From the NCBI GenBank assembly GCA_017936845.1, contig JAGBES010000018.1:92-64091 (forward strand): a stretch of 64,000 bases of DNA, read 5' to 3'. Source of the stretch: Bacilli bacterium. Its GTDB lineage: Bacteria; Bacillota_I; Bacilli_A; RF39; UBA660. This document shows positions 1 to 3,273 of the stretch, piece by piece. The stretch's first letter is position 1, and each line of letters starts with the position of its first letter. The notes under the pieces were generated by a model, which saw nothing but the letters and a program-made list of their open reading frames with translations, was not told the origin of the DNA and did not search any database. Both the position numbers and the translations under genes were made by a program.

Positions 1-149
1 TAGCATCATTTATTATTTTATATACTACTGGGGTTGCTATAAGGGCTATAATTGCTAGTATTACTATAACTGCTAGTAACTCTATTAACGTAAATCCTTT
101 CTTTAGGTTATTTAAATAACCCCCCCCCGATTTTACTATTTGCTAACAT
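1..149 (-). pseudogene. Type IV pilin-like protein (prepilin-type N-terminal domain). Only the 5' part is in the window, and the ATG at 149 is out of frame with the pilin frame across a G9 tract.
   Basis: Minus-strand translation of 103..2 gives KKGFTLIELLAVIVILAIIALIATPVVYKIINDA, a class III signal peptide with G|F cleavage site and hydrophobic helix. That frame has no ATG/GTG/TTG after the TAG at 145..143. The only ATG (149..147, MLANSKIGGG) reads through G9 and stops at 110..108. One G fewer would fuse the two frames. Confidence 0.6.
120..128. repeat. Homopolymeric C9 (G9 on the coding strand) inside the 5' end of the pilin-like gene
   Basis: Nine consecutive C counted at 120..128, in otherwise extremely AT-rich DNA. 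Confidence 0.9.
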
Positions 150-183
150 ATAAACTATCTACTTTCTATTTTTTTCTATACTA

Positions 184-212
184 ATTATATATTAAAAAAA
201 CTAGTTTTTCAA
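184..212 (-). promoter_or_regulatory. Sigma-A-type promoter upstream of the pilin-like gene
   Basis: Minus strand reads TTGAAA (212..207), a 17-nt spacer, then TATAAT (189..184). This is about 35 nt upstream of the ATG at 149. Confidence 0.45.
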
Positions 213-220
213 CTAGTTTT
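194..220. terminator. Bidirectional intrinsic terminator hairpin
   Basis: A7 tract, stem CTAGTT/AACTAG with a short T-rich loop, then a T tract. It lies downstream of the 360..788 gene. An identical 26-mer recurs at 10945..10970. Confidence 0.55.
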
Positions 221-359
221 ATATAATTTTTTTTGCATTTTCACTTTCTAACTCATCTGTTAAAAATTGATTATTATTATCTAATATTGTTTTTAAATCT
301 CCTTCTTTTGGTACATTATTATTTACATTTTTTTTATTTTAATTTACACTTATTTATTT

Positions 360-788
360 TTATAAATATTTCTTTAAAGCTTCTACATATTTTTCTTGTT
401 TACTTACATATTCTTCTAATATTTCGCTTACTTTTTTATCTACTGATTTTTTATTAATGATTCTTCTTCCTTCTATTATACCCATATTTGTTCCCTGTAA
501 TAATAATTCAGCTATCTTAGAATCACTATCATCCAGCATTGTTTTCATATTTATTCCTGTCCATGTCATTGCTTTTGTAAAACTTCCAGTTTCATGTGGT
601 TCAGAATCACTATATTCTACATATATTTTATCAATTTTTCTTTTAATATCTTCATAAAATTTATATTGTTCTTTTACTGTTTTTTTTAATTTTTCATCTT
701 TTATTTTACTAATTATATCTTTAGTTGCATCCATCCCCATACAAGCACCTTTACTTATTTCATCTAATGTATTTATATTTTCTTCCAT
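360..788 (-). CDS. Hypothetical helical protein (142 aa)
   Basis: ORF track. It has normal charged composition, unlike the Leu/Phe/Ile-rich ORFs on the opposite strand. No motif recognised. Confidence 0.55.
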   Translation of the reverse strand: MEENINTLDEISKGACMGMDATKDIISKIKDEKLKKTVKEQYKFYEDIKRKIDKIYVEYSDSEPHETGSFTKAMTWTGINMKTMLDDSDSKIAELLLQGTNMGIIEGRRIINKKSVDKKVSEILEEYVSKQEKYVEALKKYL

Positions 789-810
789 ATTTTATTCCTT
801 TCTAATTTAT

Positions 811-833
811 AAAAAGTCTCACAGAGACTTTTT
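811..833. terminator. Intrinsic terminator hairpin
   Basis: AAAAAGTCTC-aca-GAGACTTTTT is a perfect stem flanked by A and T tracts, directly after the stop of the small ORF 836..985. Confidence 0.6.
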
Positions 834-835
834 AA

Positions 836-985
836 TTACATCATATCTTCTAGCATATTATCTGCTTTTTTCATTGCTTTATTTGCAATTTTATCCATTT
901 GTTTTTTTACTGGTTTTTTATATTTTTGATATGCTAAAACAGCTCCTGCACCCATTAACATGTATGCTACATCCATCTTTTTCAT
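836..985 (-). CDS. Small protein (49 aa), not in the ORF track
   Basis: GAAGGTGA Shine-Dalgarno sequence about 7 nt before the ATG at 985. Product is MKKMDVAYMLMGAGAVLAYQKYKKPVKKQMDKIANKAMKKADNMLEDMM. A terminator follows. Confidence 0.4.
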   Translation of the reverse strand: MKKMDVAYMLMGAGAVLAYQKYKKPVKKQMDKIANKAMKKADNMLEDMM

Positions 986-1065
986 TATATCACCTTCTTG
1001 CTAAAAAATATGAAAATATTGTATGTTATATACATACAATATTAGTTTAACTAATTTTTATTTTT

Positions 1066-3273
1066 TTATACATTATTAATTAATTTTTCTTTTAATGATG
1101 TTTTTCTAACTATTTCATTATTATTACTTATTCCTATTTTAAAAGCATTAATCTCTCCTAATATAATTAATTTTCTTTTAGCTCTTGTAATAGCTGTATA
1201 AATAAGTTTTTTATATAACATTCTACTATAACTTGTACTAAGTAATAAAATAACTGTATCAAAATCACTTCCTTGTGATTTATGTATACTTATTATATAT
1301 CCATGTTTTATTTTATTAAAATCTTGTGGCAAATATTTTACTATATTTGAATCAAAATCAACATATATTTCATTTTTATGACTTTTTGATGTATCTGATT
1401 CTTTTATATATTTTATAATTCCTATATCACCATTATATACATTCTCATCAGGCATATTAGTTAATTGTAATATTTTATCATTTTCTCTAAAAACTACATC
1501 TCCTACTTTTATTTCTCTTTTAAATTCATCTTTAGGATTAAATATATTTTGTAATTCTTTATTAATATTATCTATTCCATTTATACCAGCATACATTGGT
1601 GCCATTAATTGTACTTTTTTATAATCATAACCTTTTTCTATTAACATTTTTGACAACTCTTTTAAATTAAAGATTATTTTATCTTTATTACAATTTAAAA
1701 ACATATAGTCATCTTTTTTTTCTAAAAAATCATCACTTATATTATTTTCTTTTATTTCTTTAGCAAGTATTGGAATATATGAATCATTACTTTGTCTATA
1801 TAATGTATTTAAATTTATAGTTTTAATTTTTTGACTTTCAATTAAGTCTTTTAATATTTGTCCCATACCTACACTAGGTAATTGATTATAATCTCCTACT
1901 AATACTAATTTAATATTATTTGTTATCCCTTTAAATAAACTATCTAATAATTTAGTATCTATCATACTTACTTCATCTATTATAATTAAATTACTATAAT
2001 CTTTATTATATTCATTAATAGCAAATGAATTGGTTTCTTTATTCCATTTTAAAAATCGATGAATTGTTGAAGCTTTGAAATTTGTTGATTCACTCATTCT
2101 TTTACTAGCTCTTCCGGTTGGTGCTAATAAAGCGATTTTATTTAATGCATCTTCTAATGTTAATTTATTTATTTTTATATATAAATCAACTATAGCTTTT
2201 ATTATAGTTGTCTTTCCTGTACCAGGTCCACCAGTTATAATAATTATATTATTTATTAAAGCTGATTTTATTGATTCTTTTTGTTCTTCATTATATTTTA
2301 TATTACTTTCTTTTTCTAATTTTTCTATTTCTAAATCTATATTTTTTATTTTATTTTGTTCTTTATTTATTAAATAGTTTATCTTTTTTACAATATTATT
2401 TTCACTATCATATATATCTTTTATATAGTATTTTTCTTCTTCTTTTACTATTTTTCCCTCATATCTAAGTTCATCTATATAATTATTAAAATCATTTTCT
2501 TCTATTTCAATTTTTAAATAATTTAAAACATTAATTTTTATTTCATCTAAGTATAAATAAGTATCTCCTGATTTAAATAATAAAGTATTCATTACATATA
2601 TAATACAGGCTTTTATTCTTTCTATAGTTGTATCATTTGTTATTTTTTTATTTATTTCATCTACTTTTAAAAATGATATTTCTAAATCTGTATCTAAAAT
2701 ACAATATATATTATGTTCTATTTCTCTAATTGTATTACTCTTGAATTTATTATATATATTTAAAGCATCTTTTAAGCTAAATCCTAATTCTGTTAAATAT
2801 ACTACTACTCTATGACTTTCTTCATATTTATTTAATGTTTCTATTATTATATTAGATTTTTTTAAAGTTAAAGTTGGTACTAAATTTAAACAATCTGGTT
2901 CTTCTAATATTCTATCTAAAGCATTATTACCCAATGTTTCTACTATTTTAGTTGCTAATTTCTTACCTATACCTCTAAATAAATCACTTGATAGAAAATC
3001 TATTATAGAATCTTTATCTTCTGGTTTTACTTTTTCATAGTTTTTTACATTATATTGGAATCCATATTTTATATGTTCTACTGCTTCTCCATAAAATATA
3101 TATTTATCTTCTTCATTTAATAAAGCAAAATTACCTGTAAAAGTAATTGTTTTATTTATATATGGAATAACTTCTAAATCATCAGTTTCTTCTACTTTAA
3201 ATATCCCAATTACAAATCCATTTTCACCATTAAATATACTTCTTTTATATATTCCTTTTATATATGTTTCCAT
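1066..3273 (-). CDS. recD2: RecD2-type SF1B ATP-dependent DNA helicase (RecD-like/YrrC family)
   Basis: Motifs seen: Walker A ITGGPGTGKTT, LAPTGRASKRM, Walker B IIDEVSM, VGDYNQLPSVGMG, and the C-terminal SIHKSQGSDFD. The likely start is METYIKG at 3273, preceded by GGTGA. The ORF track extends the ORF to 3300. Confidence 0.9.
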   Translation of the reverse strand: METYIKGIYKRSIFNGENGFVIGIFKVEETDDLEVIPYINKTITFTGNFALLNEEDKYIFYGEAVEHIKYGFQYNVKNYEKVKPEDKDSIIDFLSSDLFRGIGKKLATKIVETLGNNALDRILEEPDCLNLVPTLTLKKSNIIIETLNKYEESHRVVVYLTELGFSLKDALNIYNKFKSNTIREIEHNIYCILDTDLEISFLKVDEINKKITNDTTIERIKACIIYVMNTLLFKSGDTYLYLDEIKINVLNYLKIEIEENDFNNYIDELRYEGKIVKEEEKYYIKDIYDSENNIVKKINYLINKEQNKIKNIDLEIEKLEKESNIKYNEEQKESIKSALINNIIIITGGPGTGKTTIIKAIVDLYIKINKLTLEDALNKIALLAPTGRASKRMSESTNFKASTIHRFLKWNKETNSFAINEYNKDYSNLIIIDEVSMIDTKLLDSLFKGITNNIKLVLVGDYNQLPSVGMGQILKDLIESQKIKTINLNTLYRQSNDSYIPILAKEIKENNISDDFLEKKDDYMFLNCNKDKIIFNLKELSKMLIEKGYDYKKVQLMAPMYAGINGIDNINKELQNIFNPKDEFKREIKVGDVVFRENDKILQLTNMPDENVYNGDIGIIKYIKESDTSKSHKNEIYVDFDSNIVKYLPQDFNKIKHGYIISIHKSQGSDFDTVILLLSTSYSRMLYKKLIYTAITRAKRKLIILGEINAFKIGISNNNEIVRKTSLKEKLINNV

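Follow-up and report, generated by a model that had tools for sequence, protein, structure and literature searches.

Why should a pilin-like gene be separated from its only start codon by an uninterrupted run of nine guanines? The question is posed by the first letters of a stretch of 64,000 nucleotides (nt) from the genome of an uncultured gut Bacilli bacterium of the RF39 lineage (UBA660; assembly GCA_017936845.1), hereafter the window, which corresponds to positions 92-64091 of contig C4 (JAGBES010000018.1). The assembly comprises 34 contigs and 1.12 Mb with a GC content of 23%. Our answer, to which we attach a probability of about 0.8, is that the G9 tract would act as a slipped-strand (contingency) switch located inside the cleaved leader of a gene for a type IV prepilin-like adhesin.

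The gene is read from the minus strand of the window. Its start codon, ATG (149..147), is followed by TTA GCA AAT AGT AAA ATC and then by the G9 homopolymer (128..120), which sets in 21 nt past the ATG, near the 5' end of the pilin open reading frame (ORF). In the G9 state, the ATG frame is translated as MLANSKIGGGLFK (MLANSKIGGG...) and, after the tract, continues through TTA TTT AAA to a TAA (110..108) that ends an out-of-frame peptide of 13 codons. The pilin frame, which holds the 5' part of a modular pilin ORF (1..142), is closed upstream by a TAG (145..143) when the tract is G9 and then runs through QIVKSGGGYLNNLKKG↓FTLIELLAVIV with zero ATG, GTG or TTG start codons; the arrow denotes the prepilin cleavage site, GGA↓TTT (92..97), where G-1 and F+1 are followed by TLIE with Glu+5. 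Tract length determines the outcome: G8, G11 and G14 join the two frames (ON), G9 and G12 give MLANSKIGGG(G)LFK and a stop, and G7 and G10 give MLANSKIGGVI and a stop, the frame of the last two lengths containing stops and no start of any kind. These readings bear out the original prediction, made from the letters of this DNA, in the coordinates and layout that it gave for the promoter, ATG, tract and stop, in the lack of an ATG, GTG or TTG between the TAG and the cleavage site, and in the rule that one G fewer or two more would restore a complete prepilin, G11 being found at the same locus in assembly ERZ28654748.

Evidence that the tract varies comes from orthologous loci, which were retrieved from public assemblies through exact matches of flanking proteins, using the gene order RecD2, a gene of 49 amino acids (aa), DUF2383, pilin. 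At the window locus, the tract is G9 (off) in the window's genome and in ERZ28654807 (SAMN15830134, scaffold_485), G11 (on) in ERZ28654748 (SAMN15830109, scaffold_485) and G12 (off) in both ERZ28655052 (SAMN15830104, scaffold_674) and ERZ28018929 (k141_203347). The assemblies ERZ28654748, ERZ28654807 and ERZ28655052 derive from ruminant metagenomes. The first 3500 nt of the window align to the G11 and G12 copies with 0 mismatches, the lone difference being the 2 or 3 nt by which the tracts of those copies are longer, and five A/T runs of 8-9 nt within the same 3.5 kb are unchanged between the copies. In the G11 assembly, the gene is called from the leader ATG as a 424-aa protein, P0001, with the N-terminus MLANSKIGGGGYLNNLKKG↓FTLIELL..., and the OFF alleles retain frames that are open for at least 261 codons downstream, with the C-terminal 278 aa still called as a Gp10_C gene. 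Thus, the comparison of related strains that had been proposed as a check yields G9, G11, G12 and G12 in the other assemblies, with lengths that differ even between the same or near-identical strains. Three lengths at one locus with identical flanks, together with intact ON and OFF alleles, lend strong support to the phase-variation reading.

Tract length also varies at other copies of this leader in the genome. At the C29 locus, which carries the L28-linked gene for a 165-aa pilin, it is G9 in this genome, SAMN15830134 and SAMN15830109. In SAMN15830104 and ERZ28018929 it is G11, the gene there being ON and called with a length of 165 aa. The window locus and C29 vary independently, SAMN15830109 being ON at the former and OFF at the latter, and SAMN15830104 the reverse. 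At the C2 locus, this genome has G11, and ERZ28654807 and two Logan assemblies have G10; a locus-specific look at C2 in the Logan contigs found one length per run, G10. Logan contigs from single runs also carry G6, G7, G10 and G11 leaders, which are unassignable to the window locus given that the leader is multi-copy, with ~30 nt identical on each side. The G7, G3AG6 and G5AG tracts do not differ between the two assemblies compared for each, and this invariance of short or interrupted tracts fits length-dependent slippage. The ON state accounts for 1/5, 2/5 and 1/4 of the alleles at the three variable loci, about one third, which is what unselected drift in length would give. A pattern scan of Joint Genome Institute (JGI) metagenome contigs for the leader gave 0 matches; an exact-match look-up with the 182-aa neighbour of C2 returned no record, and the same look-up with its 306-aa neighbour returned one short contig without the leader.

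The distribution of G/C runs across the 1.12-Mb genome points in the same direction. Runs of at least 7 nt number five compared with ~0.6 expected from the composition, and those of at least 9 nt number three compared with ~0.008, in agreement with the earlier remark that a 9-nt G run is unusual in DNA this AT-rich. Four of the five runs of at least 7 nt sit inside the pilin leader, where they share the context ATG/GTG TTA GCA AAY AGT AAA ATC, G run, (T)TATTT. Altogether, the leader is carried by seven genes: that of the window (C4:211, G9) and those at C29:90855 (G9) and C27:224 (G7), all out of frame; C2:53465 (G11), in frame; and C9:111075 (G3AG6), C21:210 (G5AG) and C32:8058 (G5AG), which have interrupted tracts, the last two on near-duplicate contigs. 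Leader nucleotide identity is at least 95% between genes whose protein bodies are 45-60% identical. The sole leader substitution noted, AAT to AAC in C27, leaves the encoded residue unchanged when read from the ATG but changes it when read from the ATA, and copy-specific single-nucleotide polymorphisms among the leaders are exemplified by A/G at 158 and AAT/AAC. The only G/C run of at least 7 nt outside the pilin leader is a C7 at C20:3333-3339, in the context GGTATACATAAATACCCCCCCTTAAAATTTTATG. As regards the two G5AG copies, C21:1-6000 and C32:7850-13920 are near-identical over ~6 kb that include the pilin gene, lepA, a sporulation protease with a sigma factor, and hrcA; what sets the two copies apart is the number of repeats in a Cys-rich ECxC protein, and an IS30-like transposase gene lies just upstream on C32. 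Either the assembled genome is heterogeneous in its strain content or the region is truly duplicated.

Is the arrangement peculiar to this genome? The exact leader was found, among 60 relatives, in the window's own genome only. A degenerate scan of 201 genomes of the family, which looked for at least G8 within 45 nt upstream of cleavage-site codons GG-TTY-ACN-YTN-RTN-GAR, matched nine genomes from eight genera, and none matched the reversed control pattern. Besides the window's species, eight species in seven further genera carry G8-G12 ahead of the cleavage site, behind leaders that differ in sequence (MITNSKF-, MEKKQV-, MKEKIRL-, MKTNVRF- and MLTICKN-). Both states are represented among the matching relatives, two being in frame and all others out of frame; in most of these relatives, the tract sets in 18-21 nt past the ATG. 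A genome from a Hadza human gut carries a 68%-identical orthologue with the same leader and a G7 tract. A different placement of the run is seen in genus G012 (L051, L060 and L064; C56, C67 and C104, respectively), where pilin genes with a normal MKKG leader carry G11-G12 between TTGACA and the -10 element (TATGAT or TAAAAT), all three copies being at contig ends. This arrangement would be a promoter-spacer version of the switch.

How could such a tract operate? Transcription would proceed from the TTGAAA-17-TATAAT promoter and translation from the ATG at 149..147, with seven codons, MLANSKI, leading into the G tract. When the number of guanines is 3n+2 (8, 11, 14), the ribosome would read three to four glycines and then YLNNLKKG↓FTLIELL..., producing a full prepilin, and any other length would bring it to a stop after 11-14 codons. 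Slippage during replication would alter the tract by one or a few guanines, setting a heritable and, in principle, reversible ON or OFF state in each lineage. The tract would encode only glycines within the leader that prepilin peptidase removes, so that its length would have no effect on the mature protein and G8 and G11 would give the same mature pilin. With seven leader genes, each with its own tract length, combinatorial states would result, presenting varied tip modules on the pilus. We infer from the DNA sequence that slippage is the cause, as we do the reversibility and rate of switching, the expression, processing and display of the protein, and its adhesive role.

Several points weigh against this interpretation. 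All six copies of the leader that precede canonical pilins in this genome are out of frame, and two of them, those with G5AG tracts, are probably too short to switch often. All tract lengths compared were taken from assembled contigs, that is, they describe variation between assemblies, which may come from related animals or sites and not from one clone, and some of which may be re-assemblies of the same reads. The case as a whole is built on DNA. Finally, the pilin frame in the G9 state contains an ATA (139..137), the equivalent of which serves as the non-canonical start in the NCBI annotation of the C29 paralogue, and the G9 state might accordingly be 'low' and not 'off'.

The last point underlies the alternative that the tract is a dimmer, with out-of-frame lengths permitting low expression through initiation at the ATA, slippage of RNA polymerase or ribosomal frameshifting. 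In some relatives, a second start codon in another frame abuts the tract (ATG in L050, TTG in L054 and L065). However, ATA is a very poor bacterial initiator, and the purine-rich ribosome-binding region is ~19 nt away from it here; in addition, the G7/G10 frame combines stops with zero starts, and the AAT to AAC change in the C27 leader is synonymous only in the ATG frame. Transcriptional slippage, moreover, is reportedly established for A/T runs and not for G runs. We therefore hold the dimmer to be unlikely. In the NCBI annotation, the C29 G9 allele (C29:90837-91329, L012) appears as the 161-aa P0003, starting from ATA as MVKSGGGYLNN...; we regard this start as an annotation rescue, with weak initiation there being possible. 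Other pipelines give truncated calls of 120, 278 or 796 aa from internal ATGs, so that genes of this kind are systematically mis-annotated.

Could the lengths instead be errors of sequencing or assembly, the true tract being fixed and in frame and G9, G11 and G12 being faulty consensus calls? Long G runs are error-prone on Illumina instruments, at two loci the Logan contigs of SRR12529200 break off within the tract, and assemblies were the data throughout. Yet the differences amount to 2-3 nt at depths of ~46-100x, and the lengths recur in concert in independent assemblies: G12 at C4 together with G11 at C29 in both ERZ28655052 and ERZ28018929, G9 at both loci in the window's genome and ERZ28654807, and G10 at C2 in three assemblies. 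The identity of the neighbouring A/T runs also speaks against consensus errors. So does the whole window, which contains 59 A/T runs of at least 8 nt and yet is covered to 89% by stop-free frames at least 150 codons long, and so does the fact that other genera have kept the tract at the same codon. A homopolymer error, which the original prediction had offered as its alternative, hence seems to us very improbable, the agreement of assemblies in pairs and the constancy of the A/T runs in the 3.5 kb being at odds with it.

Much the same low standing applies to the possibility that tract length is changed by gene conversion between paralogous leader copies and not by local slippage. The contrast between the nearly uniform leaders and the diverged bodies of these genes makes exchange or homogenization plausible, and gene conversion may well keep the leader copies alike. 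As a source of the length changes, however, it meets the difficulty that G12 and G10 occur, lengths that are not represented in any other copy of this genome, and that lengths change without accompanying changes in flanking markers. Least credible of all is a simple pseudogene, a dying paralogue with a fixed frameshift and no switching, for which one could invoke the six out-of-frame canonical-pilin copies, the degenerate leader of strain L023 that appears locked off and the paralogue C21:19928 that is frameshifted elsewhere, but which is contradicted by the in-frame G11 allele of the same gene with identical flanks, by OFF alleles with more than 260 open codons and an intact Gp10_C domain in place of the further decay that such a gene should show, and by the maintenance of the tract at seven loci and across genera.

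Two other explanations were set aside. Reassignment of TAG, or another genetic code, does not account for the locus, as there are more in-frame TAGs upstream, the frame lacks a start, and large genes are normal under table 11. A G-quadruplex or attenuator role was discarded because a single G run is incapable of forming an intramolecular quadruplex.

Several elements lie upstream of the start codon. A sigma-70-type promoter, TTGAAA (212..207)-17 nt-TATAAT (189..184), spans 184..212 on the minus strand, matches the consensus at 11 of 12 positions, is conserved before paralogues and was the top promoter-like site within 1..1100 in a promoter scan. A purine-rich ribosome-binding region, AGAAAGTAGA (AGAAAGTAGG in paralogues; 158..167, minus strand), is assigned from its position, ~9 nt before the ATG, and its conservation. 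Overlapping the promoter is a hairpin with a T-run, AAAACTAGTT-GAAA-AACTAGTTTTTTT (194..220, minus strand), the loop and 3' arm of which provide the -35 element (TTGAAA) and which is probably the terminator of the upstream DUF2383 gene; the same module stands before many paralogues. A terminator scan gave this hairpin no score, as its stem has too few G-C pairs. The hairpin with the -35 element may act as a portable terminator-promoter module, being found also upstream of C2:40747, C7:7568, C7:17280, C16:59448, C21:19928, C27:1608 and C33:42143. One of these genes supports the ATG (147..149), which is also the start of the 424-aa gene call in the G11 assembly, as the true start: C21:19928 has the same 5' untranslated region (UTR) and begins with a leader, ATG ATA GCA AAT ATT AAA AAG AAA GGT (MIANIKKKG↓FT), that lacks the tract-bearing insert.

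C21:19928-21210 encodes a Gp10_C-type pilin paralogue with a frameshift ~22 codons past the cleavage site (...LIAIP and a stop). The remaining ~380 codons still align with aa 42-422 of P0001 at 56% identity. The paralogue may be a pseudogene or else represent another type of indel switch.

What does the gene encode? The gene leaves the window at position 1, and contig C4 ends 91 nt further (C4:1-91). Its 3' part was found on contig C1 (C1:7370-6462), which encodes aa 122-424 with 99.3% identity to the complete orthologue, indicating that the window's gene is split by the assembly and not degraded. The complete P0001 consists of an N_methyl domain (PF07963, residues 16-39, 32.9 bits with a cut-off of 21.2), a linker and a Gp10_C-like tip (PF21939, residues 217-422, 47.1 bits with a cut-off of 27 in a Pfam search), Gp10_C being the C-terminal domain of a phage baseplate protein. 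HxH motifs resembling metal sites (SHSHS and three copies of AGAHTH) can be read from its sequence. The cleavage region, ...NLKKG↓FTLIELLAVIVILAIIALIATP, displays the features of a prepilin, including a basic leader ending in Gly, F+1, Glu+5 and a hydrophobic helix, and the N-terminus matches type IV pilin chains in PDB, those of MshA and geopilin. By these features, the product is a type IV prepilin-like protein. Machinery for its processing and assembly is encoded in the same genome: a prepilin peptidase (PF01478) at C5:27821-28147 (66.6 bits) and a PilB-type ATPase (T2SSE) at C5:3977-5116 (417 bits), with a second copy of the latter on C29. Sporulation genes encoding SpoIID, SpoIIID and SpoIIP were also found in this lineage.

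The gene belongs to a family of ~27 prepilin-like genes, recognized by G↓FTL(I/V)E, with products of up to 1169 aa, many of them at contig ends. In most of them, the leader is short (MKNKKG↓F) and is preceded by the same module of hairpin, promoter and 5' UTR. Besides P0001, products that carry the tract-bearing leader include the plain 165-aa pilin, a pilin with Ig-like (immunoglobulin-like) and HL_N-beta domains detected by Pfam, and a protein of 847 aa for which Pfam gave no match and which has a non-canonical N-terminus, NNNG↓FVSSA. Directly 3' of the 165-aa pilin gene lies a gene for a 586-aa ALK/LTK glycine-rich protein (PF12810, 110 bits; L019:1219-2979, C29:91415-93175), which may be co-transcribed, and hence co-switched, with it. 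A second frameshift in the C29 gene was considered and dropped, since the 165-aa pilin has a gene of its own, separate from that of the 586-aa ALK_LTK_GRD protein.

Other strains differ in the pilin genes found at given chromosomal sites, as seen at L032 (ERZ27233169 k141_398977, 2274-3150) and L041/L042. In a related strain, DUF2383 is followed by another pilin-like gene, one without a G tract, the product of which, MNKKNMNKKG↓FTLIELL..., has N_methyl and LRR_5 domains and 597 aa. In strains of the GAIO21-1 assemblies, the position upstream of lepA, occupied by a pilin gene in this genome, is without one. Such differences suggest that pilin genes are replaced or inserted at fixed chromosomal sites. 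In the divergent strain L023 (ERZ27302875 k141_1555786), the region upstream of gene 89-880 (minus strand), at the L28-linked locus, contains a degenerate leader, ATGTTAG-TAATAGTAAAATAGGGGATTATTTAAATAACC, in which the tract is reduced to G4 (AGGGGA) and 1 nt has been deleted after the ATG. This leader looks like a locked-off or decaying copy.

How does the proposed switch compare with known systems? Phase variation by homopolymer slippage is textbook knowledge in a few cultured pathogens, among them Neisseria, Campylobacter, Helicobacter, Haemophilus and the mycoplasmas. In mechanism, the closest analogue would be pilC1 and pilC2 of Neisseria gonorrhoeae and N. meningitidis, whose reading frames contain a G tract of 9-20 (PMC5953494, citing Jonsson et al., 1991). 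Both systems would have poly-G near the 5' end of the coding region of an adhesin gene associated with the pilus, turn the gene ON or OFF by frameshift and involve at least two independently switching copies. Unlike the product considered here, PilC is not a pilin, has a Sec signal peptide and belongs to a Gram-negative pathogen of ~50% GC, whereas here the tract would lie in the class III (prepilin) leader of pilin-like genes, seven in number, of an uncultured Gram-positive-type commensal with 23% GC. In logic, the opa family of Neisseria would come closest. The CTTCT repeats of opa genes lie in the region coding for the leader peptide. Common to both would be a scattered multigene family of adhesins, a repeat in a removable leader, combinatorial ON and OFF states and an unchanged mature protein; the opa repeat, however, is a pentamer and not a homopolymer, and Opa proteins are outer-membrane beta-barrels, not pilins. 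The opa family has ~11 copies, each phase-variable (PMC3745409).

Campylobacter jejuni has poly-G/C contingency genes, such as Cj1295 (PMC3068675). As in C. jejuni and Helicobacter pylori, a small AT-rich genome would concentrate its rare long G/C runs in genes for surface structures, with lengths that vary between and within strains; in those two organisms, however, the genes are mostly for glycan-modifying enzymes, flagellar or restriction-modification proteins, and there is no paralogous family of pilins under one leader. The modular architecture itself has a precedent in the type IV pilins of Streptococcus sanguinis, where PilB bears a vWA module and PilC a lectin module (PMC8179133). These, too, belong to the type IV pilus of a Gram-positive bacterium (Bacilli) and have a pilin module at the N-terminus fused to a bulky functional one at the C-terminus, but no phase-variable tract has been reported for them, and the present family differs in its Gp10_C, phage-fibre-like module and its ~27 members. 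A full-text literature search returned no report of homopolymer switches in the prepilin leaders of Firmicutes or Bacilli. The mechanism is thus a known one, and what is new is the lineage, the gene family and the unusually large repertoire of modular pilins.

The setting is an uncultured, very AT-rich commensal lineage of ruminant and pig guts with genomes of ~1.1 Mb, in which the switch would act on the type IV pilin-like genes themselves, in a prepilin leader that is cleaved off, such that length changes would cost the mature protein nothing. As a result of ATA starts, truncation at internal ATGs and contig breaks, pilin repertoires of metagenome-assembled genomes of this kind are systematically under-reported. 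A broader reading, to which we would give even odds, is that these small-genome gut Bacilli possess a pilin 'phasome': ~27 modular pilins, a portable promoter-leader unit with poly-G in the leader, an independent heritable ON or OFF state for each gene bearing it, and combinatorial pilus tips within a clonal population, recurring in several genera. The tips would be formed by phage-fibre-like, leucine-rich-repeat (LRR), Ig-like and glycine-rich modules, and either exchange between copies or selection would keep the promoter-leader unit near-identical in genes that have otherwise diverged. Bacilli with reduced genomes appear to invest heavily in variable surface filaments that are diversified stochastically, and such a phasome, if real, could serve host or glycan tropism, or the evasion of immunity or phages.

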